This document shows positions 40,447 to 62,378 of a DNA stretch of 64,000 nucleotides, in pieces (positions within the stretch are counted from its first letter, which is position 1; the number at the start of each line of letters is the position of its first letter). Source of the DNA: Candidatus Woesearchaeota archaeon. GTDB taxonomy: Archaea > Nanobdellota > Nanobdellia > Woesearchaeales > UBA583. Both the position numbers and the translations under genes were made by a program. The stretch is from positions 832,001 through 896,000 of the forward strand of contig OZ242164.1 of assembly GCA_965205335.1 (NCBI GenBank), given 5' to 3'. Below the pieces are notes generated by a model that did not search any database, had not been told where the DNA came from, and saw only the letters and a program-made list of their open reading frames with translations.

Positions 40447-40448
40447 AA

Positions 40449-44596: not shown

Positions 44597-44597
44597 A

Positions 44598-45641
44598 ATG
44601 GCAGGAAATTTAATAGCGGATTTAATCGAAGATTTTAAAAGTTTAGGGACATTGGCTGAAGTAACTCAAGATGATTTAAAAACTCTTGAAGGTTTATCTG
44701 TAAATCCTGATGAGTTAGATGAAGGTCCACTGGCAAGTATAATTTCACCATTTAAAAAAATGTATCGTAATAATCACTTAAAACTAACAAGTGATGTAAA
44801 TGGAGCTATTGAACACCTTAAAGGAGTTAGTAAGTATAGTGATGAAATAGTAAAATGGCTTGGAGACTTTAGAGTTATAAGAGAACATTCTGAATTAATG
44901 AAGTTATTTAATAATCCTAATCAAGAAGGTGCTACGTTCTCAAGTCAAATTGAAGGATTGTCTCGAAATTTTGATTTATATGTCCAAAAGGTAGGTATGT
45001 CTTTAGAAAAAGAAGAAAATTTAATAGGTGAATCTGCTGAAATAGAACATATGTCTACTTATCGTGATAAAATAGTTAAGAAATTAGAAGAAATTAAAAG
45101 TATTCAAGGGGAGAATAATTATAAAGACATTAAGGAAATGTTTATAGAGTATGCTACAGGAGAGATAGGTAGGAGAATTAGAGATAGTACATCTATAAGT
45201 AAAGTAGTAAGAGAAGTTCTTCCTCAAATTAATCAGTTAATACTTCTGGCAGAAGATGAAATTTTTAAGAAACTTAATGGAAATTTTGATAGTTATAGGA
45301 GGGGAATTATTAGAGGTTTCTTTGTAATATTTTTTGGAGATTTAGAAAAGTTTAAAGAAGAAAATTCTAATGAATATCTAGAAAATTGCCTTAAAGAAAT
45401 TAATGGTCTAGAAACATTGAAATATGGGAATTTTGAAGTAAATATTAAAGACCCAAGTAGAATTGAATATAAAGGTAAGCCCAATGAAATCTTCAAACTT
45501 TCTTCTACCACGTTATTGCATTCAGTTCTTATAAGTCCAGATGGTCTTTCTTTAAGGTTTAAAGATACAAATGATGGAAAAGAAGTGACTAAAAAGATTT
45601 CTACATTAAACCTAAGGACACCTCCTCCCCAAAAGATGTGA
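44598..45641 (+). CDS. Hypothetical helical protein B'
   Basis: SD GGAGGT at 44585-44590 before ATG 44598; Pro-rich C-terminus LRTPPPQKM. Confidence 0.75.
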   Translation: MAGNLIADLIEDFKSLGTLAEVTQDDLKTLEGLSVNPDELDEGPLASIISPFKKMYRNNHLKLTSDVNGAIEHLKGVSKYSDEIVKWLGDFRVIREHSELMKLFNNPNQEGATFSSQIEGLSRNFDLYVQKVGMSLEKEENLIGESAEIEHMSTYRDKIVKKLEEIKSIQGENNYKDIKEMFIEYATGEIGRRIRDSTSISKVVREVLPQINQLILLAEDEIFKKLNGNFDSYRRGIIRGFFVIFFGDLEKFKEENSNEYLENCLKEINGLETLKYGNFEVNIKDPSRIEYKGKPNEIFKLSSTTLLHSVLISPDGLSLRFKDTNDGKEVTKKISTLNLRTPPPQKM

Positions 45642-45784
45642 CATCTCAAAGAGAGCAGTAAGTTTGGGATGTTGAAGTTTCAACGTCTATTTCTGTTAAG
45701 GTTAATAATAATGAAAATAAAAATGATTACTAATGAGTAGTTAAAAAGGAAAGATTTATAAATAAAAGTCTCTTACTCCTTTAC

Positions 45785-46507
45785 ATGGAAAGTTCAGGTA
45801 TTAAAAGAAAAGCTAGCGAGTCAGGCACTCCTAATGGTAGTGATAGAGAAAATAGGTTAACAGAAATCATAGGTTATGTAACCATTGGTAATTTAAATTC
45901 ATATCGGAAGAAACATCCTAAAATAGCAACAGGAGTATTGGCTCTAGCATTAGCAGGTGGTATATTAGGAATTAAATATTGTGGTAATAATGAAGCAGTT
46001 AATGTTCCTCCTACTGTTCAAGAGATCTATACTGAAAGATCAAAGGAGAAAAAACCTGATGAAGTAACAATTTTAGAGGATACATCTAAAGGATCTGATG
46101 TTCCAGCTACTCCACAAACACCTAGTGTTCCAAGTAAAAGTGTTGAGAGGCAACCATATAGTAAAGGACCAGAGAAAGAACCAACAAAGGTCCTCTTACA
46201 AAAAAAAAGCCATTTAGAAGAAATGTGTCCTAACTATAATCCATCTGAAGAGGACAGAGATGATATACTTAGATGTATAAATAAGGAAGCACGTTATTTA
46301 GTTCACGGTAAGCGTGAAGACCAACAATATTTAACAAGTATATCTGGAGTAGTTAATCTTTTAGAAGATGAAAGAATAAGAGGAATTAAGAAAAGAGCAA
46401 TTCTTAGTCCTTATGCTCAAAGATGTGGAATTTCAGAAGATGAAATAAGAAGTTCGAATATAGAAGATTTAGAAGAAAAGGTAAATAGTTGTTATACCTC
46501 AAAATAA
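45785..46507 (+). CDS. Single-TM protein with Pro/Lys/Glu-rich linker and small Cys-containing domain
   Basis: TM ATGVLALALAGGILGI; own TATA at 45755-45762. Confidence 0.7.
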   Translation: MESSGIKRKASESGTPNGSDRENRLTEIIGYVTIGNLNSYRKKHPKIATGVLALALAGGILGIKYCGNNEAVNVPPTVQEIYTERSKEKKPDEVTILEDTSKGSDVPATPQTPSVPSKSVERQPYSKGPEKEPTKVLLQKKSHLEEMCPNYNPSEEDRDDILRCINKEARYLVHGKREDQQYLTSISGVVNLLEDERIRGIKKRAILSPYAQRCGISEDEIRSSNIEDLEEKVNSCYTSK

Positions 46508-46871
46508 AATAATTAATTCTATAATTCTTTAGATAATGTAATTCTTATAGTGGAATCTTTTAATAAGTATTACCATAATTTTACAGTGCAAGATAACTAA
46601 ATTTATAAGAAAATATCTTATAAATTTTATCCTTCTCAGAAATAAGTAAATCAATAAATAAAGAGACAGTGTTTTTGAAAAAACAAAACTATGGATATAT
46701 TTTTACATATAAAATTGATTATGTACATACAATTAGGATAGAGTCTCTCTTTAATAAAATTATGTCAGAAAAGGCACTTAATTGTTTGCTTAAATTTATC
46801 CTTACTTGGAAGTAACAAATACAAAAGCTTTATAAATAATAAGATATTATTACTATTTAACAGTAAAGAAA

Positions 46872-48296
46872 ATGAAAATGAAAACAAATTTAGAGGGTTT
46901 GTGTATACGAGGACTTGCATCCTCATTTAAAAAAAGTATAACGACTGCCGCATTAGCGGCAATGATGGCATCGGGTCCACAAGTTTCCGCACAACAAGCG
47001 GCAATGATGGCATCGGGTCCACAAGTTTCCGCACAACAATATAATCTCGCAGAAAGAACAGATTGTGTTAGTGAAAATGTGGAAGTAGTTTCTCTTGATG
47101 ATAAACAAGGATATTCAGTTGCAAAAACATATTGTCCTAGTAAAGGTAAACCAGTTGGACAATTTAGTGATAGACTTCGAGAGTCTTTGGGTTTGGAACA
47201 GGATGAAAGTAAAGTAATAGAGGCATATTATCTTGATGATTCAGGAAAGCCTGCACTTTCTCCTATTGGTGTGTATTGTACTTTGAATGATTCTCATATG
47301 ACTGACTTAACTCATTTAGGAAGAGATCATCCTTCAGGTGTCCCACTTGGAGTTAGAGTTAGAGAATCTACAGAAGAAGATGGATGTGCTGTTGAATCAG
47401 AGGTTCATTATGCGATTGAAAATGATTTCAATGAAAAATTTGAGGATTTAACTGGTAGAATTAGAAAATTAGAAGAGATTGGTAGTAGTCGCCCACAATC
47501 AGAAAAATCATCGGAAGCACCAGTAGAACCACCTGAGGTACAAGCAGTTCCTGCAGAACCAGTAGAACCACCAACGGAAGTTGTACAAATTCCTCATTTC
47601 GTAGTACCATTAAGAGGTAACAGCACTAAGAATTTACCAGTTGTAGTTTACGAAGATAATTTAGTTAAATCAGTTATAGGATTAGATCCAAGGAATGGAT
47701 ATTCTCCAGAATATGGTAATGCAAGTTATGACTCATTCCAGCTTTCTAATGAAGAAATTGCGAAAGAGTTATTAAGACAAGCAAATTTGGAAAAATTAAT
47801 ACATTCTGTTTCCTCAAAGATAGGTGCTATGGCTGTTAAAGAACATTATGGAGGTGCCCCTGAATTAGGAAGAGATATAATTTTACATGAAACTTTAGGT
47901 GATCTTGGTCTCTCTAAAAAAGAGTTACTTAATGGTGGGTTCAATTACGGAGCAGATTCGGCTGCAGCAGACTTAGTAGTAGAAAGAGCTAAGGAGGGAG
48001 GAATATATACAATGCAAGATCTTGCTGGACTTACAGACAAAAATCTTCTTTCAAAGTTTCTGGATCTTGGATATAAATTTATAACGGTTAAACGTATTGT
48101 CCCCGGCAGTTCTTTTAATCATGTGCGTACTAAAGGAACAAGAAGAGCATTAAACAAAGAGATTAAACGTGCTAAGAAGGATGTTTTTAAAACATGTGGA
48201 TCTTTAGGCTCCCAGAATGGGAGGATAGCATGTGCTTTTGATAGAGGATATCGTGTAATAGGAGAAATTGTTGGGAACAGAGGTAATAGAAAATGA
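46872..48296 (+). CDS. Hypothetical secreted protein
   Basis: Signal-like N-terminus; Pro/Glu-rich linker; ATGA overlap with the next gene. Confidence 0.7.
   Translation: MKMKTNLEGLCIRGLASSFKKSITTAALAAMMASGPQVSAQQAAMMASGPQVSAQQYNLAERTDCVSENVEVVSLDDKQGYSVAKTYCPSKGKPVGQFSDRLRESLGLEQDESKVIEAYYLDDSGKPALSPIGVYCTLNDSHMTDLTHLGRDHPSGVPLGVRVRESTEEDGCAVESEVHYAIENDFNEKFEDLTGRIRKLEEIGSSRPQSEKSSEAPVEPPEVQAVPAEPVEPPTEVVQIPHFVVPLRGNSTKNLPVVVYEDNLVKSVIGLDPRNGYSPEYGNASYDSFQLSNEEIAKELLRQANLEKLIHSVSSKIGAMAVKEHYGGAPELGRDIILHETLGDLGLSKKELLNGGFNYGADSAAADLVVERAKEGGIYTMQDLAGLTDKNLLSKFLDLGYKFITVKRIVPGSSFNHVRTKGTRRALNKEIKRAKKDVFKTCGSLGSQNGRIACAFDRGYRVIGEIVGNRGNRK
46956..47039. repeat. Perfect 42-bp tandem duplication (AAMMASGPQVSAQQ x2)
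   Basis: gcggcaatgatggcatcgggtccacaagtttccgcacaacaa occurs twice. Confidence 0.97.
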
Positions 48297-48871
48297 ATAA
48301 AAAATTAATTAAAATAGTAGGTGCTGCAGCGTTATTATATGGCGCATCTACATTAGAGGCAGGACCACTTCATACTGGTTATGTTGCTAATTTGGAGAAA
48401 AAATATGTAAAAAGAATGTGTAAAGATAACAAAGGATTAAGGGCTAAATATAGAAATAATCTAGAACAGTGTGTACAAGATGTTAATGGAAGTTTCAATC
48501 AAAAAGCTCAGGTAGTTAAGAGGTTAATGGATTTCAATGTTGCAACAGGATATCTTGGTGATAGTCTGCCTCGTCTACCTCAATATTCTATGGTAAGTGC
48601 TTCTGAAGAAGACAAACTTAGAATAGCAGCAAAAGTAGCAATAGATGTGACTCCAGAAACATTGTCATACTTTAATGCCACAATGCTAGAAGTCAAAGGA
48701 CACAATAAAATTAAGGGAGACCTTAATGAAGCAATAAGAGATGATATAATTGCAACGGGAGTACTTACTGCTGTGGGTTCGTTTTTCTTAGGAAATGGTG
48801 TAGCGAAAGCAGTTGAAGGAGTTAGTCATAAATCCCCTAAGATTATGATAAGAGCACCGGGTGTAAATTAA
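48293..48871 (+). CDS. Hypothetical secreted protein with hydrophobic Gly/Ala-rich C-terminal helix
   Basis: Signal MNKKLIKIVGAAALLYGASTLEA; C-terminal IIATGVLTAVGSFFLG. Confidence 0.7.
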   Translation: MNKKLIKIVGAAALLYGASTLEAGPLHTGYVANLEKKYVKRMCKDNKGLRAKYRNNLEQCVQDVNGSFNQKAQVVKRLMDFNVATGYLGDSLPRLPQYSMVSASEEDKLRIAAKVAIDVTPETLSYFNATMLEVKGHNKIKGDLNEAIRDDIIATGVLTAVGSFFLGNGVAKAVEGVSHKSPKIMIRAPGVN

Positions 48872-48895
48872 AAGTTAGAAAGAGGAAAAAATAAA

Positions 48896-51800
48896 ATGAA
48901 AAAACAATTACTACTGATGCTGTTTGCAATCTTATTATCTTTAGGATTTGCATTTGCTTCAGAGACACAAGGTGAACAATATCATGTTTTCCAGATGAAC
49001 TTTGCAGATGAAGTTCCAAATTCAGTATTTGTAACAGGTGGAGAATGTGCCAATACTCTGTGTAGTACATTTAAACCATCATCACAAGTTGAAGTGTACA
49101 ATGGCGCACAAGCATTTGAATGTGACAGATTATATTCAAATAATGTGAATGACTTCAAATCATGTATGGCGAGAGCTAAACTGAGTTCAAACATTCATCC
49201 AATACAAAATAATGGAGATTATGTTGCAGTTAAAGTTAATATACCTAACAATTATGCATTTGGACACTTACTATGGTTCTCAACAGAAGGAGACACATAC
49301 ATACCTTGGTATGCTCAGGTAACATATGACTGTTCAGGTGGAGAAGTATGTTTTTATCCAGCGGCAAGTAGCAAGGGAAATGCAACAGACATTAACTTTG
49401 ACAAATTTCAAAGAATTGCAATTGCTGAAGTAAGTCAAGTTAACATAAAAAACCTTGACGATGACACAAAACCAATTCAAATAGAGGTTCCAGTTCAAAT
49501 AGAAGAAACTGTTTGTTCAGCTTATAGAGCAGCTAATGGTAACTATGAAGTTCCAAACTTCCCCCAAGGATACTCTGATCTTAGTGCTAACACAAACATT
49601 AAACTAACTATTAAAAACAATCATAACAGCGAAGTGCTATTAACAGAAGATGTTAACTTACCTATTGAAGCAGACACATGTGCAGCGCTTCATGCATTTA
49701 CATGGACTCCTCCAGAAGATTTACTTGACACAGAAATTAAATTTAGAGTGGAAACAGATGTTGTTGACAAACAAGTAAGTGAGTCCAAAAAAGACTTCCA
49801 CGAAGTAATTGAAACAATCTACCCAGAAGACCTTACCGGACAATGTTGGAGTAGAGCTTACGATTTAGTATTAACAAATGATCCATATGAAGAATTATCA
49901 ACAAGTATAGTTGAAATAACTAAAGGAGAGAAAGTATATGCAATATTTAATGCAGGAACATGGAAAGGTAATGAAATAACTCCTCTTGAAACATCTTGGC
50001 AAATTAAATTTAACAGTACAGTAGTTAAAGAGGGAGAATTTCAGACTCAAACAAATGATGTGCAGAAAATTACAGTTGATCTAACAGAGGCTATCTCAGT
50101 TGTTGATGCAGGAAATTATAGAGTTCAATTAATAACAAGAGCATCAAGTACTCAGAATTGTGATGTGAGTGTACCTGTAGTTCAGAATGTGAACTTAGAC
50201 GTTCGTGAAATTGATATGTTTGAAGTTGAATTTGAAGTAATGGAAGAAGGAGACCAATACAACAAAATAGATGGAGCAAACATTAGCTTAGTATTAACCG
50301 AGTCTCACGAGTACTTTGCAAGCAAACCAGAATATGACAAAAGTCAAACAACTGACACGCAAGGAAAAACTACATTTAACGAAGCTACAAGAGGAGAATA
50401 CACGTACACAATAACAAAAAGTGGATTCCAGAGAGTTACAAACAATGTAATTGTTGGTTCAGACACAACGGTAACAATCTCTCTACCAAAAAATAACAAT
50501 GCACCTACAATTGATTTACCTCACAACAGAACAGTAGATATTAAGAGCACATTAGAACTAGATTTAGAAGATTATGTACATGACTTTGAAGATGCATTTA
50601 GTGATTTAAATCTTAGCGTAAGAAAAGCATCAGGAAACGCGCAAGTGCAAATAGAGAACTCAAAATTAATAGTAAAAAAGAATTCAGTTGGAAATGTTGA
50701 CCTTGAAGTAACAGTAACTGACAGTCAAGGGGCATCAGCTAGTGATTCAATGTTAGTTAGTTTCATTGATAACAATGCTCCTGTAATTAATTCATTTGTT
50801 GCAAATCCTACTAACGGAGATGCTCCATTTACAACTACATTTGAAATAGATGTTCATGATGCTGATGGAGATACTCTAAGATGTACTATAAACTATGATG
50901 ATAGAAGTACAAATAAAGAAGGTAACTGTGATGAAATTGATGGAATAACTCACACATACAACACAGTTGGAACATACAATGTAGTTTTAACAGTAAGTGA
51001 TGGCAAAAATGATCCTGTTAAACAAACTGAGCAGGTATTTGTATTTGAAAGAAACTACTCATCACCTCATATTGGGTTTTTCACATTAGAATCAAGCAAT
51101 GGTGATTATATACCAACTGATTTAACATTAGTTTGGGAAGTAACTCACCCTGACAACCTTGATACAAAATGTTTCCTTAGAATTAATGGAGTTTCAGAGA
51201 GCGTTAATTGTAAAGATACAAAGAATATAAACAACTTTGACAGATTAGGAGAATCCAGATTCATATTGCTTGCAGATGATGGGGAACACCAAGTATCAAG
51301 AAAACACATTAAAGTATTTTATAGAGAAGAAGATGAGGAAAACACACCACCAGTAATTGATGAATTCACAGTTAATACAACAAAAAGCACATTAGGTATG
51401 ATTGCACAATTTACCACAGCAGTATCAGATGCTGATGGAGATAGTTTAAGATGCTCTATTAACTTTGGAGATGGAGTTACAATACAAGACTCAGAATGTG
51501 ATCCATTAAGAAGTGTAGAACATCAATATAATGGAGTAGAAGACTTCACTGCAATATTTAGTGTAACAGATGGAGTAGACACAACATCAGAATCTATTAC
51601 AGTTGCATTAGAAGAAGATAAAGTAGAAGTGAATAACACACCTCCAGTAATTGAAGAATTCACAGCAGATCCAACAGAAGGCTCGGTAGGAGTGGAAGTA
51701 ACATTTACTACAAGAGTATCAGATGTTGATGAAGATAGTTTAAAATGTTCTATTGACTTTGGAGATAGCGTTACAGAAGATGATACATACTGTACATTTT

Positions 51801-53446
51801 TAGAAACAATAAAACATCAATACAACAGTTTAGGAACATACACCGCAACATTTAATGTAACAGATGGAACAGACACAGCATCAGAATCTATTACAATCAC
51901 AGTAACTGATGAGGAAAACTCACGTCCAGTAATTGAAGAATTCACAGCAGATCCAACAGAAGGCTCAGTAGGAGTGGAAGTAACATTTACTACAAGAGTA
52001 TCAGATGTTGATGAAGATAGTTTAAAATGCTCTATTGACTTTGGAGATGGAGTTGCAGAAGATGACACATATTGTGTCTTCTTAGAAACAGTAGAACATC
52101 AATATAACACTGTGGGAACATTCACTGTAAGATTTAGTGTAACAGATGGGACAAACACAGTCTCAGAATCTATTGCAATCAATGTAAGAGAAAACAACGC
52201 ACCTGTTATAAACCGATTTGAAGCAAGCCCTAGCGGAGGACGTTCACCTCTTATTGCTTCATTTTATGTGGACGTAACTGATTCAGATGGAGATAGTGTA
52301 TCATGTAGAATTGATTTTGGAGATGGAACATTATCACATCAGGATGATTGTTACTTATTAAATGGAGTGACTCACCAATACATAGGAATTGGTAAATATA
52401 CTGCAAAATTAGTTGCAGAAGATGAGTTTGGTAAGGAAATTTATGCAACAGAAACAATTAGAGTAATATCTCAAGAACCTTTAGTTGAGTTCTTTACTCT
52501 AAGCACATCAACAGGAAGTTATATCCTTCCAAATGACATAACACTGCAATGGAAAGCAACTCACCCTGATGAAGTGCCAGTTACATGTGACTTAATAGTT
52601 AACGGTGCTAAAACATCTAATGTTGGATGTCAGAACTCAAAAACACTCTCAAACTACAATGTTGAAGGAACTGCAAAATTCGAGATAGTTGTAAGAGATG
52701 GATATGGAAACTCAGATAGCAAGAGCATTGAACAATTATTTGCGAAAGTTCCGTTAACTCATGAAAATTTAGACTTGGAAATTGACTCTGTAATTGAACC
52801 GGGAGATTTCAGATTCTACTTAGAAGTTAGTGACGAGAGTATTGCAAGAAGACAATTGTACTTAGAACCACAAATCAGATGTAATGGAGTTACAAGCCCG
52901 CTATCTAACAGCAGAAAATTAGAAACTTCCGCTAAATCAAGTGTATACATTGGTTCAGTTACAAGATTTGAATTTATAACAAATACACTTGATTACCGTT
53001 CAAATATTCCAAAAGAAACTCAGTGTGTATTCTCTGTAAGAGTTACAGACAAATATGGAACAGACCTTGAGTTAAATGAGGATGTAAGATTTGAATACGG
53101 AGTGGGTCAGACTCAAATCCAATCAATTAGAGGAAGTGGAACTGACATTGCAAATTACATGCAAACAGCTCTTAGTGGCAATATTGAACCAGGATTTAAT
53201 TCAGTAGAGTTCAATTTGATAAATAATGAAGTAGAGGACAAAAGAATTACAGTCTCACTATTGAGCAGAGAACTTGGAATCAATTATGTATTGGATAGAA
53301 GATTAGAACCAGATACATTACTGAGAGTTCAAATTCCAATATACATTTCAGATAATGTAGAATCAGGAATGTATCCTGTTAGAATTAGTTTCACTGATGA
53401 AAACGAAGGAAGACAAACAAGATACACTTACATAAACATTGAATAA
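48896..53446 (+). CDS. Large secreted PKD/Ig-like repeat surface protein (putative adhesin)
   Basis: Signal peptide; repeated NxxPVIxxF...D.DGD.L.C.IDFGDG...H.Y...G.Y...V.DG PKD units. Confidence 0.88.
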   Translation: MKKQLLLMLFAILLSLGFAFASETQGEQYHVFQMNFADEVPNSVFVTGGECANTLCSTFKPSSQVEVYNGAQAFECDRLYSNNVNDFKSCMARAKLSSNIHPIQNNGDYVAVKVNIPNNYAFGHLLWFSTEGDTYIPWYAQVTYDCSGGEVCFYPAASSKGNATDINFDKFQRIAIAEVSQVNIKNLDDDTKPIQIEVPVQIEETVCSAYRAANGNYEVPNFPQGYSDLSANTNIKLTIKNNHNSEVLLTEDVNLPIEADTCAALHAFTWTPPEDLLDTEIKFRVETDVVDKQVSESKKDFHEVIETIYPEDLTGQCWSRAYDLVLTNDPYEELSTSIVEITKGEKVYAIFNAGTWKGNEITPLETSWQIKFNSTVVKEGEFQTQTNDVQKITVDLTEAISVVDAGNYRVQLITRASSTQNCDVSVPVVQNVNLDVREIDMFEVEFEVMEEGDQYNKIDGANISLVLTESHEYFASKPEYDKSQTTDTQGKTTFNEATRGEYTYTITKSGFQRVTNNVIVGSDTTVTISLPKNNNAPTIDLPHNRTVDIKSTLELDLEDYVHDFEDAFSDLNLSVRKASGNAQVQIENSKLIVKKNSVGNVDLEVTVTDSQGASASDSMLVSFIDNNAPVINSFVANPTNGDAPFTTTFEIDVHDADGDTLRCTINYDDRSTNKEGNCDEIDGITHTYNTVGTYNVVLTVSDGKNDPVKQTEQVFVFERNYSSPHIGFFTLESSNGDYIPTDLTLVWEVTHPDNLDTKCFLRINGVSESVNCKDTKNINNFDRLGESRFILLADDGEHQVSRKHIKVFYREEDEENTPPVIDEFTVNTTKSTLGMIAQFTTAVSDADGDSLRCSINFGDGVTIQDSECDPLRSVEHQYNGVEDFTAIFSVTDGVDTTSESITVALEEDKVEVNNTPPVIEEFTADPTEGSVGVEVTFTTRVSDVDEDSLKCSIDFGDSVTEDDTYCTFLETIKHQYNSLGTYTATFNVTDGTDTASESITITVTDEENSRPVIEEFTADPTEGSVGVEVTFTTRVSDVDEDSLKCSIDFGDGVAEDDTYCVFLETVEHQYNTVGTFTVRFSVTDGTNTVSESIAINVRENNAPVINRFEASPSGGRSPLIASFYVDVTDSDGDSVSCRIDFGDGTLSHQDDCYLLNGVTHQYIGIGKYTAKLVAEDEFGKEIYATETIRVISQEPLVEFFTLSTSTGSYILPNDITLQWKATHPDEVPVTCDLIVNGAKTSNVGCQNSKTLSNYNVEGTAKFEIVVRDGYGNSDSKSIEQLFAKVPLTHENLDLEIDSVIEPGDFRFYLEVSDESIARRQLYLEPQIRCNGVTSPLSNSRKLETSAKSSVYIGSVTRFEFITNTLDYRSNIPKETQCVFSVRVTDKYGTDLELNEDVRFEYGVGQTQIQSIRGSGTDIANYMQTALSGNIEPGFNSVEFNLINNEVEDKRITVSLLSRELGINYVLDRRLEPDTLLRVQIPIYISDNVESGMYPVRISFTDENEGRQTRYTYINIE
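51350..52190. repeat. Tandem PKD-coding repeats (periods 294 and 282 bp)
   Basis: ccagtaattga at 51350, 51644 and 51926; the last two units are nearly identical at DNA level. Confidence 0.9.
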
Positions 53447-53505: not shown

Positions 53506-54633
53506 TTAATCTAAATCTAACACAATCTCATTATTTTTGTAATTCAATTTAGAAACCACCTTTTTTAACTTCTCATCAGAATTAATCATTTCTTTAACAT
53601 AATCCCACCCTTTTTCTTTCCCAGTTTTACTTATGCGTTCAAGCAATTGCTCAACTAAAGAATAATTCTCATATATCTTATTCCCATACAAATTATATCT
53701 CTCATAATCCCTTAGAACTTCCTCTTTTAATTTTTCCTGTTTAGAAAGCCTATTTTGAAGTTTTTTAAACTCAGTGCTCAATTGCTCCACTTTACTATCT
53801 TTCTGCTCAATATGTTGCTCAAAATAGCCCTTAATTGCATCATTAAAAGAATTAACTCTCTCTAAATTACTCACTGACTTAAATCTAATAGGAAAAAAAT
53901 CTAAAATCATGCCATTCTCCCTTAAAACACATGGTTCTTCCTTAGAACTTAAAACAGAATTAACTGAACTAATCAACTTCTTAACGTCCTTAAACTCACT
54001 GCATAAAACATCCTTATTAACTTCCAACCTAAAACAAACCTCCTCAGAGAATTTCCCACCAAGTCCTAAATTAATTGCTAAAAACTTAACTAAACTCAAA
54101 TCAGAACCTCTCAGTTCATCACTTAATTTCATCTCATCTGTATTCATATAAGAAATATCCTTTTTAGGAGGCAACTTGTAAACATCATGAACCATCACAT
54201 TTCTTGCTTTAAACTTTCTTTTAACCAAAGAATTCAAAATCACATTATCACTATCACAAACTATAATGTTCCCCTTAGCAAAAAGTTCTAAATAAACATA
54301 ATATGTCTCTATCTTTTCCAATCTTTTCTGCTCAAAACTAATCTTAATAATACGTTCATTTGGAATTAAAGAAATCTCTCTAATAAAAGATGATTTCAAA
54401 TACTTACGCAGATAAGACACAAAGGAATCAGGCGTGGAACTATCAACCTTGGAATCACCGAGATAAATATACTTAGAGACTTTATTTATCAAATATCTAT
54501 GCCCAACTCCGCGAACATAAACCCTTATATAGAAAATCCCCTCATCATAATAAAAACTATCCACACGGTTATTCTCAAAGACTTTAAACTCACGAACCAA
54601 ATAAAATAAATCAACTGATGAAATCTGTTTCAT
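53506..54633 (-). CDS. NFACT/Rqc2 (FbpA-N) family protein lacking the C-terminal NFACT-R domain
   Basis: SSVDL, F..YLRKYL, ERII, LELFAKGNII and GLGGKFSEE; ends after the coiled coil. Confidence 0.85.
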   Translation of the reverse strand: MKQISSVDLFYLVREFKVFENNRVDSFYYDEGIFYIRVYVRGVGHRYLINKVSKYIYLGDSKVDSSTPDSFVSYLRKYLKSSFIREISLIPNERIIKISFEQKRLEKIETYYVYLELFAKGNIIVCDSDNVILNSLVKRKFKARNVMVHDVYKLPPKKDISYMNTDEMKLSDELRGSDLSLVKFLAINLGLGGKFSEEVCFRLEVNKDVLCSEFKDVKKLISSVNSVLSSKEEPCVLRENGMILDFFPIRFKSVSNLERVNSFNDAIKGYFEQHIEQKDSKVEQLSTEFKKLQNRLSKQEKLKEEVLRDYERYNLYGNKIYENYSLVEQLLERISKTGKEKGWDYVKEMINSDEKLKKVVSKLNYKNNEIVLDLD

Positions 54634-54640
54634 TTGTCCT

Positions 54641-54703
54641 CTAAACTTCGGAATTGTTCCCCTCTTTCATTTTATCTTCCTTTTCAATCTCCCCAATTAT
54701 CAT
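54641..54703 (-). CDS. Putative leaderless 20-aa uORF upstream of the NFACT gene
   Basis: MIIGEIEKEDKMKEGNNSEV*; TTTATATA (54725-54732, minus strand) lies 21 nt upstream. Confidence 0.35.
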   Translation of the reverse strand: MIIGEIEKEDKMKEGNNSEV

Positions 54704-54797
54704 AACTTAGCCACAGTTTAACCTTATATAAAAGTTTGTTTTAAGAACAAAAAAATCAAATGTTAATATTTATAAATTCCCCATTCCAGATAAAAAT

Positions 54798-56048
54798 ATG
54801 AAAGATTTTGAAATACTCAAAGGAACAAAGGATTCCTCATTTAGTGAACAGATTAAAATCAACGAGATATTACAGACAATAAGAACCAATTTTGAAAAAT
54901 ATGGATTTAGACCCTTTGATACTCCAAGCATTGAATATATGGATACTCTAATGAATAAATACAAAGAAGACGATGAAATTGTTCAGGAGATATTTAAAGT
55001 AAAAGATAGAGGAGATAGGGATTTAGGTTTAAGATATGATTTAACTGTTCCTCTATGCCGTTATATTGCATCTTCAAAACAGCCCAAACTTCCATTTAAA
55101 AGATATGCAATTGGAAATGTGTTTCGAGATGGTCCTATTAAATCAGGTAGATTAAGAGAATTTACCCAGTGCGATGCAGATATTATAGGTATAAAGGATA
55201 TTTGCGCAGAAGCTGAAACTCTTAAAATGTTTTATGATACATATAAAGAAATTGGAATTGATGCAGTAATTGAACTAAACAATAATAAAATCTTAAGAGG
55301 GGCTTTATTACAGGAGGGATTTAAAGAAGAGGAATTGCAGGGATTAATCTTAAGCATTGACAAATTGAAAAAAATAGGCGAAAGAGGAATTCTTGATGAA
55401 ATCAAACAAAGAAATTTAGATGAGAACAAAGTTAAATCAGCCATTTTCACCCTATCATTAAAAACATTTGAAGAACTTGACAAGAAAGCATCCAATAACG
55501 AACTAAATGAAGGAATATCCCAATTAAAAGAACTAGTTAAATATCTTGATAATTTGAAAGTTAAATACAGACTTAATTTCTCAATGTCAAGAGGGCTTGC
55601 AATTTATACTGGTAATATTTGGGAAGCATACGACACTAAAAAAAGAATTGAATCTTCAATTGGTTCTGGTGGGAGATATGATAAGATAATTGGGGATTAT
55701 ATACAAGATGGGCGGGAGTATTCTGCATTTGGAGTTTCATTTGGTTTGGCTCCTATTCTAAAATGCATTAAATCAGAAGACAATAAAATTAGTAATACAG
55801 AGATTTTAGTTGCTCCGTTAAATTCAAATGAAAAATTGATAAACACTGCATTAAACTTAGCTCAAAATCTAAGAGGAAAGGGTAAAAACACAGAAATATG
55901 TTATGATTTCAAGTTAAAAAAAGCATTTGATTATGCGGATTACATAGGAGCAAAAGAGCTTGCAATAATTGGCAGAAAGGACTTAGAGAAAGAAGTTTAC
56001 ACATTAAAAAATCTTAGTACAAAAGAAGAAAAAGAAGTTAAATTATAA
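54798..56048 (+). CDS. hisS: Histidine-tRNA ligase
   Basis: KGTKD, LRYDLTVP, FRD....GRLREFTQCD, RGL..YTG and GGRYD. Confidence 0.96.
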   Translation: MKDFEILKGTKDSSFSEQIKINEILQTIRTNFEKYGFRPFDTPSIEYMDTLMNKYKEDDEIVQEIFKVKDRGDRDLGLRYDLTVPLCRYIASSKQPKLPFKRYAIGNVFRDGPIKSGRLREFTQCDADIIGIKDICAEAETLKMFYDTYKEIGIDAVIELNNNKILRGALLQEGFKEEELQGLILSIDKLKKIGERGILDEIKQRNLDENKVKSAIFTLSLKTFEELDKKASNNELNEGISQLKELVKYLDNLKVKYRLNFSMSRGLAIYTGNIWEAYDTKKRIESSIGSGGRYDKIIGDYIQDGREYSAFGVSFGLAPILKCIKSEDNKISNTEILVAPLNSNEKLINTALNLAQNLRGKGKNTEICYDFKLKKAFDYADYIGAKELAIIGRKDLEKEVYTLKNLSTKEEKEVKL

Positions 56049-56159
56049 TCATTATTTTCTAAAGTTAATTGTGTTTTTCTTGGCTTTAGATGTTCATTTT
56101 CGTCCGATTAATTTATAAATAAGAAAGCATTTACTTAGAATAGTAACAAGTAGATACTA

Positions 56160-58475
56160 TTGAAAGTGACAAATCAAGACAATTCTAGAGAAGAAGGACA
56201 AGAGAATTTAGAAGAGAAAATAGGGCTCTTTGGTAAATTCAGAGGACGAGGGAAGAAGAAAAAAGCAATAGTTGATGTGAGTTTTATGTCTTTACCAGGT
56301 CATAAAATTAATCTCAATGAAGGAGGAGGTGTTGATATTAATTCTGAAGAAGGTAAGGGTGTATCTTTGAAAATTCACAAAGAGAGGGGAAAGACTAGTA
56401 TTAATCCTACAGATGATCCGAACATTGCACATGTAAATTCTGATAGAGAGACTATTTTTGAGTCTTCTTTCCCTGGCATGGATGTTTTTGTTGGTAAAGG
56501 AGGGAATCGTTTTAAACCTATTGATGATAGAAATATTTCTTTTAACCTATTAGACAGGATGTTTTTGAATTTTGGTGGTAATATGAAAAATTATTTTCTT
56601 GCTAGACCTACATCCAGAAAAGGTATAAATTATATCATTAATGGTGTGATTGGGGTGGTTGAAGCTATCATTCCAAGAGGTGGAGGATTGCTTACTAAGT
56701 ATGGTGAGAAGGATACTAAATTAGTTCCTGTCTCCGAGTCAGGTACATCTGTTGAAGTAGGTAAGGAAGTTAAGGTGGTTGTTCCAAAAGATAGAGGATT
56801 GCTTACTAAGTATAGTGAGAAGGATACTAAATTAGTTCCTGTCTCCGAGCCAGGTACATCTGTTGAAGTAGGTAGGAAAGTTAAGGTGGTTACTCCAAAA
56901 AGAAAAAATTTATCTGCGAAATTTGGAGGAGATGGTACTGATACAATAAGTCCCACAGATAATTCTGTTCCAGTTGTTAATGCAGGTAGAGAATTTGAAG
57001 CTAGAACTTTAGAGGAGGAGATATTATCAGTGGAACTTGGCAGGAATTGGGCTATATTTAGACCTAAAGGCAAAGGGGATGATAACCCATCTGTAACTTT
57101 GCATGATAAGATAGAAGTTACGCCTCTGAAAAGTAGAGGTATAATTTGGAATGTGATAAAGAAAGGAAGATCAGCGGTGGTGACCGCTGAACCTATAAAA
57201 AAGGGAGGAAAATTTCTTAGAATGCCCAATGGAATACTTAATCTTAATAATTTTAAATATAAGTTGAGTGATGGGGGAATATTTGATTTTAATAAAGAAA
57301 AATGGAAGAAAAGATGGGTTAAAGGACTTTCTTTGATGGTATTAGGTAGCGCATTAGCAGGCGGAGTATTAAAATATCAATACCTAATGAATAATAATGA
57401 AGGGAGTTCTCCACAACAACCTCGTTCCAAGCGATTTGATAGTATACCAGAATTAGTAGAGGCAAATGGTATTTATATTTATCATAAGGGTGCTTTTGAT
57501 AGATGGACAGATGTCTGGTATGATATTAATACATCGCAAGGATTGTGTGAAAAAGATACTTATGTAACAGATAGAGTAAAAAGCAGACATCTTCTAGTAA
57601 GACTTGATGGGCGTGTCCCAAGGATTGTAAATACAAATGGGAACAATCAGAAAGAGAAAAAAAACCGAGGAAGAATGGTAGTTTCTCGTGAGATTCTAAT
57701 GAATTATGATTTGAGAATAGGTCATGGAGGAGATTTTGTTCTCCCTATAAGAAAAGGTGAACAAGGATATCCTTTTGCATTATATTGTAATGGAAGTAAA
57801 ATGGGAAAAGCAGTTGAGAGGTATCTTTCAGGAACGATACCACCTAATCAATGGTGGAAGGGGGCAGGATTGAAGAACAAGGAACTTAAATATGGTTCAG
57901 CATTTGAAGGAATTTTTAAAGATTTTAAAGATAATGAGGGAAATCCTACACTGCCCCAAGAACTTACACACTTACTTAAAGCACAAGCACTTGTTGAGAG
58001 TAGATTTATACCAGAGTCTATATCTCCTTCTGGTGCGAGGGGAATTCTGCAATTATTAAGAGGTACTCTTAGTCATTATGGTGTCAAGAGAGAGAATGAT
58101 TTTAAAATCCCTTATCAAATCAGATGTGCTTATGCACACTATGAAGATAAAATTAAGGAATTCAAACGATCATTGGGAGATATAAGAGCATCTGATGAAG
58201 ACAAAGCAAAACTTGCACTTTATTTAGCGATGCAGGCATATCATAGTGGGGAAGGTAATGTAAGTGGGATATTAAAAAAACCAGAATCAAAAGGAATCTT
58301 AGAAAAACTATTATCTGAAAACAGAAGTCCTCAAGAAGTAGTGCATGGATTGATAATATCAAATTATGGATTTGGAAAAATTTCTAATCGCAAAATAGGA
58401 GAAGAGTCCATAAATTACTTACCAAAGATCTTTGCCGCAGAAAGATTTCTATCAGAGAATGAATTGAGAAAGTAG
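56160..58475 (+). CDS. Membrane-anchored lytic transglycosylase (SLT/GH23-like) with long N-terminal repeat region
   Basis: ALVESRF (catalytic Glu), SGARGILQL, AYHSGEGNV and ESINYLPKI; TM at about aa 390-405. Confidence 0.85.
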   Translation: MKVTNQDNSREEGQENLEEKIGLFGKFRGRGKKKKAIVDVSFMSLPGHKINLNEGGGVDINSEEGKGVSLKIHKERGKTSINPTDDPNIAHVNSDRETIFESSFPGMDVFVGKGGNRFKPIDDRNISFNLLDRMFLNFGGNMKNYFLARPTSRKGINYIINGVIGVVEAIIPRGGGLLTKYGEKDTKLVPVSESGTSVEVGKEVKVVVPKDRGLLTKYSEKDTKLVPVSEPGTSVEVGRKVKVVTPKRKNLSAKFGGDGTDTISPTDNSVPVVNAGREFEARTLEEEILSVELGRNWAIFRPKGKGDDNPSVTLHDKIEVTPLKSRGIIWNVIKKGRSAVVTAEPIKKGGKFLRMPNGILNLNNFKYKLSDGGIFDFNKEKWKKRWVKGLSLMVLGSALAGGVLKYQYLMNNNEGSSPQQPRSKRFDSIPELVEANGIYIYHKGAFDRWTDVWYDINTSQGLCEKDTYVTDRVKSRHLLVRLDGRVPRIVNTNGNNQKEKKNRGRMVVSREILMNYDLRIGHGGDFVLPIRKGEQGYPFALYCNGSKMGKAVERYLSGTIPPNQWWKGAGLKNKELKYGSAFEGIFKDFKDNEGNPTLPQELTHLLKAQALVESRFIPESISPSGARGILQLLRGTLSHYGVKRENDFKIPYQIRCAYAHYEDKIKEFKRSLGDIRASDEDKAKLALYLAMQAYHSGEGNVSGILKKPESKGILEKLLSENRSPQEVVHGLIISNYGFGKISNRKIGEESINYLPKIFAAERFLSENELRK
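56683..56900. repeat. 111-bp (37-aa) tandem repeat in the SLT1 N-terminal region
   Basis: GLLTKY(G/S)EKDTKLVPVSE(S/P)GTSVEVG.. twice; gaggatt at 56683 and 56794. Confidence 0.93.
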
Positions 58476-58484
58476 TTAATAAAA

Positions 58485-59747
58485 ATGGATAATAAAAACC
58501 TTTACAGTAAAATAAAAAAATATGGAGCTTCGGCAGGACTGCTGTTTGGGCTCTTTTTAGGAGGTTGTGATTACAATTTTCATGATAAAAATAACTCTTC
58601 AGATGCTCAAACTAATAAAGTTACAAAAACCCTTCCTTTAGAGTATTCCAAAAGACATCCATCAATACAAGCCTTAATTAAAGATAGAGGTGTTGAATAC
58701 TACCCTCCTAGTTCTTTTCAAACATGGACTCATTCATTAGTTGATATTTGTACAGGCACAGGTATTTGCTCAAAAGACGAATATAAGAGGCAAAGGTACA
58801 GACGAGTTTTTATAAGACTTGATGGAAAACTTGCAGGAACTGTAAATAGTAATACATTACCAGCAAGTATTAGAGGAGGTCAGCCCAGACGATTTAATGA
58901 AACAGAATGGAAACAAGTTGACGTGAGAATTAAAAGTGGACATGATTATGTTATTCCTTTTAATCAAGGTGATAAAGGATATCCATTTGGATTTAAATGT
59001 AATGGAAACATATTAAGAATCGGAATTGAGAGATACCTAAGGGGAGATATTAGAGGAGAGTATGGAGAATATGGGGAATATAATGTAGATTTTTACGAAG
59101 CATCATGGGGTGTTTATGTTGAAAATGGATTTCGGAAAAGAGGGATATTGCCAGAAGAGATATTTTATATAGTTAATGGTATGGCAAATGTTGAGAGTAA
59201 TTTCCTAAGAAGTGCAGAAAATAGTTCAACGGGTGCAAGGGGAATACTTCAACAGATGCCCAAAACTCTTCAAGATTGTGGAGTTCCTCAAAGTATGCAT
59301 AAAGATAGACTTGCTCAACTTGATTGTGCTTATAGATATTTTGAAGATAGATTTTCTCATTATGAACCACTAATAAATAATATAAAGATTAGTTCAGAAC
59401 AAAGAAATGAATTCTTGCTTTATCTGGCTGTTCAGGCTTATCATACAGGACAAGGTAATATAGAAAAAATATTAAAAGACCCAGAATCAATTAAAATTGC
59501 AAATAGATTTGTAGAAGAAGGAAGAGACCCTATTGAAATAGTACATGGGTTAACGATATTAAATTATGGACTTGGAAATAATGGGACTAAGGTAGGATTA
59601 GTATCTAGTTCTTATCTTCCCAAAGTAATAGCATCAGTTAGAATCTTAGAAGAAGTTAGACGAAAAAGAAGAAAAGAAGGGAATAGGATTAAAGGATATT
59701 CACTCCCTCCTCTACTCTTTCCTGAAGAAGAGGAAGGTAATAAATAA
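58485..59747 (+). CDS. Lytic transglycosylase (SLT/GH23-like), putative lipoprotein; paralog of 56160
   Basis: LFLGGC lipobox-like; ANVESNF, TGARGILQQMP, AYHTGQGNI and SYLPKV. Confidence 0.87.
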   Translation: MDNKNLYSKIKKYGASAGLLFGLFLGGCDYNFHDKNNSSDAQTNKVTKTLPLEYSKRHPSIQALIKDRGVEYYPPSSFQTWTHSLVDICTGTGICSKDEYKRQRYRRVFIRLDGKLAGTVNSNTLPASIRGGQPRRFNETEWKQVDVRIKSGHDYVIPFNQGDKGYPFGFKCNGNILRIGIERYLRGDIRGEYGEYGEYNVDFYEASWGVYVENGFRKRGILPEEIFYIVNGMANVESNFLRSAENSSTGARGILQQMPKTLQDCGVPQSMHKDRLAQLDCAYRYFEDRFSHYEPLINNIKISSEQRNEFLLYLAVQAYHTGQGNIEKILKDPESIKIANRFVEEGRDPIEIVHGLTILNYGLGNNGTKVGLVSSSYLPKVIASVRILEEVRRKRRKEGNRIKGYSLPPLLFPEEEEGNK

Positions 59748-59760
59748 TCATAACTAACCC

Positions 59761-59888
59761 GGCTCTGTCCGGAAATTGCTTTTTCCAAAATCTATGCTAA
59801 CTATATTCAATCAAAGAAAAAAATTATTCGTCAAAAGTTGCTTTATTGATACAATATTTTAAGTTCTCTTGAATTTCCGGACAGAGCC
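59761..59888. mobile_element. MITE family B (128 bp)
   Basis: 17-bp perfect TIR GGCTCTGTCCGGAAATT; 8-bp TSD ACTAACCC (59753-59760 and 59889-59896). Confidence 0.92.
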
Positions 59889-59931: not shown

Positions 59932-61146
59932 ATGTCATCAGATAACCTTCCAGTTCAACCGACAATTAATATGGGAATTGTTGGACATGTAGACCATGGA
60001 AAAACAACATTAACTAAACTTCTCTCGGGAAAATGGACTGATACGCACTCAGAAGAAATCAAAAGAGGAATTACAATAAAATTAGGATATACTAACTTTA
60101 CAATATATGAAAACTCAGATACATATTCAACAAAAAAAGAAGAGGGAGTACCTGTCAGGAAAATCTCAATAGTAGATGCCCCAGGTCACGAATCATTTAT
60201 GGCTACAATGATTTCAGGAGCCGCTGTTATGGATTGCGCCTTATTAGTCATTGCCGCAAACGAAAAATGTCCTCAGGCTCAAACAATTGAACACCTCAAA
60301 ACACTTGAAATCGCAGATGCAAAAAACATAATCATTGTCCAGAATAAAATAGATTTAGTTACAAAAGAAGAAGCCCTTGAAAATTTCAGGCAAATTAAAG
60401 CCTTTCTTAAAGGGACAATGGTGGAAAATGCTCCCATAATCCCAATCTCAGCCCAGCACGGAGCTAACCTATCAAACCTATTAAAATACATCTACAAAAC
60501 ATTTGAAAACCCAATCAGGGACACATCAGGAAATCCGAATATGAATATAATACGTTCATTTGACATTAACAAACCTGGAGAATCATATAAAAACCTAAAG
60601 GGGGGAATTCTTGGTGGAGCGATTAAATCAGGAACACTAAAAGTAGGAGATGAACTTGAAATAAAACCGGGACTTCAAAAATCAAAAGAAGGAAGAGTAA
60701 TCTGCACTCCAATAATTGCAAAAGTTGAGGACTTAATGTCAGACAAAGATAAACTAGAAAATGCAATCCCAGGAGGTTCCATCGCAATTATGACGGAATT
60801 AGACCCATACATAACCAAAACAGATTCATTAGTTGGTCAAATTGTAGGAATTAAAGACACTCTGCCTGAACCCTTATCTGAATTAACATTTGAACTGCAT
60901 ATGTTTGATAAAATAACCACATCCTCAGGAGAACACCCAGTTAAACCAATAATATTAGGAGAACCGTTAATGCTAATTGTTAATTCAATGACAACAGTTG
61001 GAGTTACCATTAAAGTAAACCCAAAAGAAGCATCAGTTAAATTAAAAAGACCGATTATGGCATTTGGGAATGATAGAGTAGTTATTTTCAGAAGATTTGA
61101 AGGAAACAAATGGAAAATAATGGGCTATGGAATAATTAAGAGTTAA
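59932..61146 (+). CDS. eif2g: Translation initiation factor aIF2 gamma subunit
   Basis: GHVDHGKTT, HSEEIKRGITIKLGY, DAPGHE, QNKID and RSFDINKPG. Confidence 0.97.
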   Translation: MSSDNLPVQPTINMGIVGHVDHGKTTLTKLLSGKWTDTHSEEIKRGITIKLGYTNFTIYENSDTYSTKKEEGVPVRKISIVDAPGHESFMATMISGAAVMDCALLVIAANEKCPQAQTIEHLKTLEIADAKNIIIVQNKIDLVTKEEALENFRQIKAFLKGTMVENAPIIPISAQHGANLSNLLKYIYKTFENPIRDTSGNPNMNIIRSFDINKPGESYKNLKGGILGGAIKSGTLKVGDELEIKPGLQKSKEGRVICTPIIAKVEDLMSDKDKLENAIPGGSIAIMTELDPYITKTDSLVGQIVGIKDTLPEPLSELTFELHMFDKITTSSGEHPVKPIILGEPLMLIVNSMTTVGVTIKVNPKEASVKLKRPIMAFGNDRVVIFRRFEGNKWKIMGYGIIKS

Positions 61147-61166
61147 ATGTATCTTCAGTCACAAAA

Positions 61167-62041
61167 TGTGTAGTATTATGACATATGTCACCACCTCAAC
61201 TTTCTCTGAAAGTTGTCAAACTCATAAGGAGGAGTTCGACCAAATAAGCTCTCATGAGGCCTAAAAGCATTGTATCTATATCTAAATAACTCTAAATCAT
61301 TGTTGCAATACCTAATTTCTCTGTCAATTGTTCCAAACAAACGTTCCACTTTTCCATTTGTTTGAGGACGGTTAACTCTAGTTCTAATGTGCTTAATCTT
61401 TCTTCTTTGGCACCATTTATCAAACTTAGACTTCTTACTTGTGAGTCCATATGGTGCTCCATTGTCACTGATTATTTGATTAGGATTTCCAAATTTCTTG
61501 ATTAAATTATCAAGAAATTGTGTTACAATTGGTGTTGTAACAGTTGGAACATGTAAAATACCTAAACAATAACAGGTGGCATCATCAATGACTGCAATTA
61601 TTTTACCTTTTTCACCAAATTCACTGTCATCAATATGCCAGAGTGAATTTGAGTGTTTACGTTCAAAACGAACGTATTTAACAAGAGACCCTCTATTTCC
61701 TTCTTTACGAGTTAAATTATTCTCTCTAAGAACTTTATTAATGGTTCTCTCTGAAATATCCAGATTAGGTAGGATTTTATGAAGCTTTAATAGATCTTGT
61801 TTGGTCTTGTAGACTTATCTTGATAATCCCATATTTCTTTATCAAAACGTTGTTGCCAACGTTTTAAAGTACGAATACTTACAAAGTATTTGCACTTCTC
61901 AGCAAGTATTTTCTTGCATTTTGAATAAGAGTTTTGTTTAACTCTTAGTTTTATGAAAACTTTCCTAATTTCGTATTTTTTCATAAAATTAACAAGAATT
62001 GTTAATTTTTAGACTGGTGACATATGTCATGATACTACACA
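61167..62041 (-). mobile_element. IS481-family copy 2 with 67-bp internal deletion (frameshifted transposase pseudogene)
   Basis: Near-identical to 16503-17444 (875 versus 942 bp); deletion junction gaagctttaatagatc near 61787; no TSD visible. Confidence 0.92.
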
Positions 62042-62057
62042 TTATTATAATTAAAAT

Positions 62058-62378
62058 TTATTTACAATATTTTTTTTGAAATTTCTTTTCATCCATACAT
62101 AATAATATTATACCCTCAATAAAACCAACTATTGCAGGAATAATAGTCCAAAAAAATACTAAGTATAATATACCCATTCCTGTTTGTCCTAAATAAAATT
62201 TATGAACTCCAAGACCACCAAATAAAATTCCAAACCATCCTGCTTTTTTTCTACTTAATTCTTTTCCTTCATCTATATGTTGTTTCACACCACAATGAGG
62301 ACATATCTCTGCTTGTTTCTTAATTGCATCTCCACAAGATGAACAATATACTTCATCAAATTTCTTTTCTTTTACCAT
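62058..62378 (-). CDS. TM2/NINE-domain membrane protein with N-terminal zinc ribbon
   Basis: CSSCG...CPHCG; GGLGVHKFYLGQ..GILYLVFFWT.IP. Confidence 0.9.
   Translation of the reverse strand: MVKEKKFDEVYCSSCGDAIKKQAEICPHCGVKQHIDEGKELSRKKAGWFGILFGGLGVHKFYLGQTGMGILYLVFFWTIIPAIVGFIEGIILLCMDEKKFQKKYCK

Follow-up and report, generated by a model that had tools for sequence, protein, structure and literature searches.

Tandem lytic transglycosylase-like proteins with predicted membrane anchors, inserted between hisS and aIF2-gamma in a Woesearchaeota-type archaeon

Two adjacent genes of a Candidatus Woesearchaeota archaeon, here called p1 and p2, encode proteins whose catalytic domains are supported by sequence comparison and a structural model as lysozyme-like and alpha-helical, of the family-1 lytic transglycosylase (LT; SLT/GH23) type. 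Both genes lie on the + strand of a 64,000-nucleotide (nt) stretch of contig OZ242164.1 (positions 832,001 to 896,000; hereafter the window), with 9 nt between the p1 stop and the p2 start, and are probably co-transcribed. We favor, with a probability of roughly 0.6, the reading that the two proteins act on the peptidoglycan of bacteria at the archaeal surface. A preliminary description of this DNA had proposed a pair of exported lytic transglycosylases directed at a bacterial wall, and the open reading frame (ORF) coordinates are exactly as given there. The parts of the two proteins, with lengths in amino acids (aa), are as follows.

56160..58475, + strand: p1, a 771-aa membrane-anchored SLT-family protein (ORF; Pfam SLT, E 4.9e-9)
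56160..57323, + strand: p1 residues 1-388, an orphan N-terminal region with 37-aa repeats, probably cytoplasmic
56670..56900, + strand: 111-nt tandem repeat in p1, 2.1 copies, 91% matches
57324..57371, + strand: p1 residues 389-404, GLSLMVLGSALAGGVL, a predicted single membrane helix (hydrophobicity scan), conserved in the p1-type relative P0008
57426..57773, + strand: p1 residues 423-538, family-specific N-terminal module (N-module) with W..G.C.KD.Y and RLDG, by homology
57774..58454, + strand: p1 catalytic lytic transglycosylase-like domain, boundaries by homology to the p2 model, with motifs GYPF..C, VES (Glu613), GARGILQ, QAYHSG and YLPK
58485..59747, + strand: p2, a 420-aa SLT-family protein with a lipoprotein-like signal peptide (ORF; Pfam SLT, E 2.2e-7)
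58485..58568, + strand: p2 residues 1-28, with a K-rich n-region, a hydrophobic core and LGGC (lipobox-like Cys28)
58647..58985, + strand: p2 residues 55-167, N-module of unassigned fold, with family-invariant Cys95
58986..59666, + strand: p2 residues 168-394, catalytic domain superposing on family-1 lytic transglycosylases, with catalytic Glu237-Ser238 at nt 59193-59198

The TTG start of p1 is uncertain; the gene caller's version (P0007) begins two codons downstream and has 769 aa.

Both proteins match Pfam SLT (PF01464) above its gathering cut-off of 21.3 bits, p1 over residues 604-711 (36.2 bits) and p2 over residues 218-338 (30.9 bits), bearing out the original domain assignment. An alignment of the two covers 346 residues, of which 127 (37%) are identical (E 2e-63), and extends over the SLT part and ~170 residues before it; they are assigned as tandem paralogues. 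VES, GARGILQ and QAYHxG occupy matching positions in the two proteins, as do W..G.C.KD.Y, RLDG and GYPF...C. The last three had been placed in an upstream domain common to both. The p1-p2 match does span an upstream module in addition to the SLT part, and W..G.C.KD.Y and RLDG fall within it, but GYPF...C lies inside the start of the catalytic domain, where the region superposing on solved LT catalytic domains begins (model residue 123, p2 residue 168). The truly unassigned module is therefore only ~p2 residues 55-167.

The catalytic motifs of family-1 LTs are largely preserved. Motif I corresponds to E237-S238 in p2 and E613-S614 in p1, and the Glu-Ser pair is invariant in 25 of 25 aligned sequences. 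Motif II (G-L/I-M/L-Q) reads GARGILQ in both proteins, with G253 and Q256 invariant in the family, and a YLPK motif is kept in both. Motif III, A-Y-N-x-G in family-1 LTs, reads QAYHTG or QAYHSG here, with His for Asn in at least 90% of the family. A family profile aligned Glu-Ser to the IES motif of MltC and EmtA, and the invariant Glu-Ser and G-I-L-Q with the catalytic motifs of MltC, EmtA/MltE and Slt70. Comparison of this profile with E. coli MltC by hhalign matched the whole catalytic domain to MltC residues 210-353 (E 2.6e-4).

The p2 core (residues 46-400) was modelled with AlphaFold from a 23-sequence alignment, giving a mean predicted local distance difference test score (pLDDT) of 83.9 and a pTM of 0.86. 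A Foldseek search with the model returned 21 matches at E ≤ 0.001, with MltF first and LTs as all of the top matches, in agreement with the initial SLT/GH23 assignment. An exhaustive structural search (VIA-align), the source of the Z scores given here, ranked MltF highest (Z 15.8, root mean square deviation 3.0 Å over 178 residues, model 123-349), followed by MltE (Z 13.9), MltC (Z 13.8), the LT entry 5o2n and MltD (Z 12.9 each), Slt70 (Z 11.1), g-type lysozyme (Z 10.6), a Ralstonia GH23 chitinase and an archaeal chitinase (Z 8.3 each) and EtgA (Z 7.6 and 6.5).

The bacterial family-1 LTs MltF, MltE/EmtA, MltC, MltD and Slt70 thus resemble p1 and p2 in predicted catalytic fold (Z 11-16), in the Glu-Ser, G-L/I-M/L-Q and C-terminal Tyr motifs, and in placing the catalytic domain behind an accessory N-terminal module. 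The distance of the catalytic motif from the N-terminus is almost the same in MltC as in the p1/p2 family. Unlike these enzymes, p1 and p2 belong to an archaeon without murein, have AYH rather than AYN in motif III and carry an N-module that has no match among known accessory modules, Mltc_N and LysM included; they thereby also differ from the MltC type, which combines Mltc_N with SLT. The orphan 388-aa N-terminal repeat region of p1 is a further difference.

In the model, the p2 N-module consists of two helices, a beta hairpin and more helices, predicted with mixed confidence (pLDDT 52-96). The N-modules of p1, p2 and six further family members gave no Pfam match even at E ≤ 10; Mltc_N (PF11873, DUF3393) was likewise not matched, and the hhalign comparison with E. 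coli MltC aligned the catalytic part only. NCBIfam yielded nothing above cut-off for the N-module and has no model for the family. No usable match was found in the Atlas. In the structural searches most of the signal came from the catalytic domain, and the N-module was barely probed. For p1 residues 1-388 there was no Pfam match, and a homologue search returned p1 alone; the region is homologous to the N-terminus of P0008 (E 7e-21). Its 111-nt repeat encodes GLLTKY..VPVSE..TSVEVG..VKVV. An AlphaFold model of this region from a two-sequence alignment was unusable (pLDDT 30.1).

A hydrophobicity scan revealed the two different anchors named in the preliminary description, a transmembrane segment in p1 and a lipobox-like Cys in p2. 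The single N-terminal hydrophobic stretch of p2 (residues 14-28, GASAGLLFGLFLGGC) ends in LGGC. A lipobox, L-[ASTG]-[GA]-C, closes the N-terminal hydrophobic core of a lipoprotein signal peptide, and LGGC fits this pattern, with a Cys at the same place in the p2-type relatives P0003 (LGGC) and P0002 (LKGC). p2 is accordingly a predicted lipoprotein-like protein, held at the membrane through its signal peptide. p1 has no signal peptide in the scan; its strongest hydrophobic stretch, residues 389-404, is preceded by KEKWKKRWVK. This Lys/Arg cluster implies an N-in orientation, which would leave ~388 aa in the cytoplasm and the enzyme outside the cell. Export of both proteins is suggested by these signal and anchor segments and further by the family-invariant cysteines C95, C172 and C281 (p2 numbering), which are typical of extracytoplasmic proteins.

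The basic C-terminal tail of p2 (residues 394-420; 59664-59744) contains a GNRIKxYxLPPxxF motif that is conserved in P0002 and P0003 and absent from the p1-type and all remaining family members.

The host genome is a single contig of 1,199,749 bp, 95% complete with 0.97% contamination and ~30% guanine plus cytosine (GC). Searches of the whole genome for Mur_ligase_M, Transpeptidase (penicillin-binding protein) and FtsW/RodA gave no matches, and positive-control genomes were detected by the same searches. The archaeon is therefore predicted to be without recognisable murein or pseudomurein synthesis, and a bacterial wall as the substrate fits the lack of such genes in its genome. In the mechanism we propose, p2, tethered by its lipoprotein-like signal peptide, and p1, held by one membrane helix behind its probably cytoplasmic repeat region, would cleave MurNAc-GlcNAc bonds non-hydrolytically in the wall of bacteria touching the archaeal surface, with the conserved Glu acting as acid/base. 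The wall of a bacterial partner or prey would thereby be opened or weakened. Our comparisons bear out the fold, the motifs, the topology signals, the insertion, the fast divergence of the locus and the lack of genes for a wall of its own; the bacterial substrate, this chemistry and the ecological role are inferred.

Several observations weigh against action on a bacterial wall. No bacterial partner of the archaeon is known. Peptidase_M23, Amidase_2, Amidase_3, NlpC/P60 and LysM had no matches in the host genome, and the SLT genes therefore do not appear to be part of a full lytic toolkit. Searches of Pfam, NCBIfam and the Atlas found no recognisable peptidoglycan-binding domain in the N-module. 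The family is chromosomal across Marinobacter genomes, where its native function is not known to be aggressive. Two further points, the His-for-Asn change in motif III across the family and the presence of the Ralstonia GH23 and archaeal chitinases among the GH23-like folds, also speak for a different substrate: the SLT fold might have been re-used for chitin or chito-oligosaccharides, or for a glycan on the surface of the archaeon's own cell or of an archaeal host. To our knowledge, all DPANN hosts demonstrated in culture are archaea, which counts in the same direction. Such a substrate nonetheless seems improbable, since the peptidoglycan LTs match the model far better than the chitinases do (Z 11-16 against ~8) and both Glu-Ser and GxxQ follow the family-1 LT motifs.

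To place p1 and p2 among their relatives, 1.84 billion representatives were scanned with p2 using phmmer. Only 29 matches were obtained at E ≤ 0.001 and four at E ≤ 1e-30, p1 and p2 themselves included. Family members are mostly ~340-390 aa long and consist of a signal peptide, an N-module and an SLT-like domain; 22 of 25 match Pfam SLT and nothing else (E ≤ 0.01). Residues C95, Y166, P167, C172, E237, S238, G253, Q256, Q278, C281 and G322 (p2 numbering) are invariant. By these comparisons p1 and p2 belong to a rare two-module family common to Marinobacter and a few DPANN genomes. Near-full-length matches occur in four of the 401 genomes sampled from the phylum (G000, G174, G056 and G145), and matches to at least the SLT core in 76. 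In other DPANN genomes, further branches of the family lie beside archaeal genes such as eIF-6, FtsY and Hjc.

Bacterial loci were scanned with a narrow bacterial alignment that shows the gammaproteobacterial branch only. It returned 212 relatives, and 76 of the 80 loci kept are named Marinobacter; L068, the sole Marinobacter locus examined, had no informative neighbours. The ~365-aa periplasmic proteins of Marinobacter and other Gammaproteobacteria (for example WP_271977181.1 and WP_368420196.1) have the same two-module architecture and invariant residues, with ~20-25% identity to p2. In contrast to the p1-p2 pair they are bacterial, and single-copy at each locus returned by the scan. A scan of JGI metagenomes with p2 found no relative. 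A mobile-element origin was considered and rejected: no relatives were found in viral contigs, plasmids or phages, and PHROGs gave only weak generic LT matches.

In the family tree, p1 groups with P0008 and p2 with P0002 and P0003, and the two groups are sisters (100/100), so the duplication predates these lineages. Each group has orthologues, and both copies are accordingly probably under purifying selection. P0008 and P0002 are both found on a 24,105-bp contig, probably the same one, and the tandem arrangement therefore appears conserved. Phylogeny had been proposed for identifying the donor, but trees of 35 and 21 rows left the backbone unresolved and allow none to be named; an approximately unbiased test did not reject a single archaeal/bacterial split (p 0.11).

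The p1-p2 block is bordered by two archaeal core genes, as previously described, and is preceded by a candidate promoter.

54798-56048: hisS, upstream of p1 (PF13393, E 8e-42)
56112..56121, + strand: TATA-box-like sequence TTTATAAATA, a pattern match only, 48 nt upstream of the p1 start; a possible archaeal promoter of the p1-p2 pair
59932-61146: aIF2-gamma, downstream of p2 (GTP_EFTU and eIF2_C matches)

The best named homologues of this aIF2-gamma are labelled Nanoarchaeota or Candidatus Woesearchaeota archaeon (70-71% identity), and the archaeal genes near the locus are aIF2-gamma, NFACT and an eRF1/Pelota-type protein. For comparison, aIF2-gamma was located in 18 of the 19 other genomes of the genus and its upstream side was fetched for 12; G003, G005, G006, G014, G016 and G018 were left out. 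In five of the 12 (G011, G002, G009, G001 and G015), hisS lies directly upstream of aIF2-gamma, across gaps of ~60, 51, 406, 121 and 586 nt, respectively, with no p1/p2 match. NFACT is retained upstream in four of these five and a large PKD-repeat protein in three, as in the window. The other seven genomes had no hisS within the ~8 kb fetched upstream of aIF2-gamma. Because hisS and aIF2-gamma are directly adjacent in the five same-genus genomes, we take the 3.8-kb p1-p2 block to be a lineage-specific insertion into a conserved neighbourhood, in one Woesearchaeota-type DPANN lineage.

This neighbourhood bears on whether p1 and p2 could be hole punchers of the VirB1/EtgA type, serving an archaeal pilus or secretion apparatus. 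EtgA is among the fold matches (Z 7.6 and 6.5), and elsewhere in the genome a third SLT gene stands beside a HerA/DUF87 ATPase gene and a pilin-like DUF7287 gene. p1 and p2 themselves adjoin hisS and aIF2-gamma instead of machine genes, and have no secretion, pilus or conjugation cluster around them in contrast to the VirB1/EtgA-type LTs; an archaeon without its own murein would also have none to puncture. We regard this role as very unlikely.

Three SLT-domain genes are present in the host genome, p1, p2 and the third gene (G000:C1:957328-959769), whose architecture is unrelated to the other two; 13 of the 19 other genomes of the genus have an SLT-domain gene of some kind. The third protein has 813 aa, with a K/E-rich N-terminus, several membrane helices and SLT at residues 664-754. 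Its gene adjoins the divergently oriented HerA/DUF87 ATPase gene (locus L123, G000:C1:948000-960000, outside the window), and close to it lie the genes for the pilin-like DUF7287 protein and a 795-aa Laminin_G_3 lectin-like protein. The locus might encode a surface or transfer apparatus that includes a wall-cutting subunit of its own.

Two points might suggest an assembly chimera or bacterial contamination: SLT domains are typically bacterial, and two repeats within the locus interrupt the short-read contigs. The GC content of the block, 0.33-0.35, lies inside the window range of 0.24-0.38. Logan contigs were compared for X1 and X2, two runs of one sample that is possibly the source of the assembly. 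They show no differences from the window over 54500-56733, bridging hisS into p1, and none over 56820-59789, covering the remainder of p1 and all of p2. Only two sites interrupt these contigs, the 111-nt repeat in p1 and a 128-bp element that follows p2 and is present in multiple copies. The hisS-p1 junction is thus bridged, and a second study supplied a 7,964-nt contig (X4) that keeps the whole gene order. The X4 contig is colinear with the window, running from hisS through five short p1/p2 patches to aIF2-gamma. It differs from the window at 133 positions plus five gaps in 1,346 nt of hisS and at 70 positions in 1,276 nt of aIF2-gamma, and its flanks are 3,553 nt apart, compared with 3,829 in the window. 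With the genome in a single 1.2-Mb contig and the orthologues P0008 and P0002 also appearing on one contig, an artefact is refuted as far as these data go and its probability is negligible, in keeping with the argument originally drawn from the flanking genes.

The element between p2 and aIF2-gamma (59761-59888) resembles a miniature inverted-repeat transposable element (MITE), 127-129 bp long with perfect 17-nt terminal inverted repeats. Further copies lie at G000:C1 189848, 238777, 381193, 484107, 494809, 664537 and 963255, and an 8-bp direct target duplication flanks each of the eight paired copies. Read depth over the element is 250-330x, against 4-9x in its flanks. The X4 contig has 244 nt where the window has 367 nt including the element, a difference of 123 nt, and the element is probably absent from the X4 relative.

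Comparison with the X4 contig also revealed strong divergence of the block. Nucleotide identity in the flanks is ~90% for hisS and 94.5% for aIF2-gamma, whereas only ~454 of the 3,829 nt between them reach 80% likeness. Of the five patches retained, two (57921-58002 and 58193-58246) overlap the Glu-Ser and QAYH motifs of p1, and one (59309-59524) covers the QAYH motif of p2. Consistent with fast divergence of the locus, the aIF2-gamma protein P0054 is 98% identical to that of the window while the p2-type P0003 is only 43-49% identical, both from a 100,733-bp European Nucleotide Archive contig, probably the same one. The block thus diverges much faster than its neighbours, in an arms-race-like pattern; these comparisons do not distinguish rapid evolution in place from the replacement of alleles.

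The divergence also bears on nutrient scavenging, in which free peptidoglycan or necromass would be solubilised for sugar and peptide uptake with no cell-to-cell attack. The catalytic evidence for scavenging is identical to that for action on bacteria at the archaeal surface, and PMC9723730 describes DPANN archaea as relying on cell components from outside. However, fast divergence of the locus would be unexpected for a bulk-polymer enzyme, and both enzymes are predicted to be membrane-tethered, not freely secreted. AnmK and GH3/NagZ had no matches in the host genome, so that 1,6-anhydro products would lack a recognised entry route. Scavenging is thus an unlikely role.

A more specific form of the preferred reading, action on the walls of bacteria at the archaeal surface, would make p1 and p2 a rapidly evolving 'wall key', with which an archaeon dwelling or preying on bacteria opens the sacculus at the contact site. 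The variable parts, including the N-module, might then track partner wall chemistry or inhibitors, and the p1 repeat region might couple the enzyme to the cell interior. We put this forward tentatively and think it doubtful in this detailed form; if true, it would provide sequence-level evidence for archaeon-on-bacterium episymbiosis.

SLT proteins in Woese- and Pacearchaeota, and the hypothesis of a bacterial wall target, are already published. Castelle et al. 2021 (PMC8204110) describe proteins with LT domains, reaching 3,000 aa, as typical of Pace-/Woesearchaeota (fam00969), propose that they bind and degrade bacterial walls, cite earlier notes (Rinke 2013, Castelle 2015), and conclude that cross-domain (archaeon-on-bacterium) episymbiosis is still an open question. 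GH23 genes were also reported from Woesearchaeota metagenome-assembled genomes by Vigneron et al. 2022 (PMC9723730), who propose predation. p1 and p2 resemble the proteins of both studies in host group, domain and proposed target, as far as these are described there; at 771 and 420 aa and with two modules, they are set apart by description from the fam00969 proteins.

Related in concept are the bacterial-type wall hydrolases in archaea reported by Strock et al. 2025 (PMC12352652), who show that archaeal M23 hydrolases kill a bacterium and report that archaeal wall-hydrolase homologues are patchy, secreted, especially prominent in Nanoarchaeota and read as weapons. The enzymes tested there differ from p1 and p2 in being M23 peptidases with PG_binding_1 domains, from a haloarchaeon. 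The survey required a known wall-binding domain; p1 and p2 lack one and would probably have gone uncounted. A literature search found neither a description of the two-module family nor an assay of any SLT protein from DPANN archaea, although supplements might list such proteins. What is new, to that extent, is the small two-module family and its insertion, together with a tandem pair whose anchors differ and a locus that is hypervariable.

The question whether any DPANN archaea have bacterial hosts or prey is still open, and the case made for it in print depends mostly on SLT-domain genes being present. The locus offers a compact and tractable case, a 420-aa enzyme and a ~360-aa ectodomain with intact catalytic motifs and export signals, in an archaeon with no murein of its own. 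p1 and p2 should be easier to express and assay than the giant LT-domain proteins described so far, and with a Marinobacter protein in the same family, one assay would annotate both. The outcome would test current thinking, not overturn it.

The window holds further features around the locus. Upstream, nine + strand ORFs form a run at 39540-53446; seven of the nine have no Pfam match, and one encodes an AAA ATPase (41764-43740). The run ends with a 1,516-aa PKD-repeat surface protein that is syntenic with NFACT, hisS and aIF2-gamma in three same-genus genomes. Downstream of aIF2-gamma, 61163-62050 is a degenerate insertion sequence-like element copy of ~890 bp, with terminal inverted repeats and fragments of broken ORFs on the minus strand. 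One fragment has a match to the integrase core domain rve_3 below cut-off (E 3.9e-5), and at least seven further copies of the element occur elsewhere in the genome at 93-99% identity. Beyond it, 62058-62378 on the - strand encodes a small protein in which a zinc ribbon at the N-terminus is joined to a TM2 domain (PF05154, E 4.4e-14).

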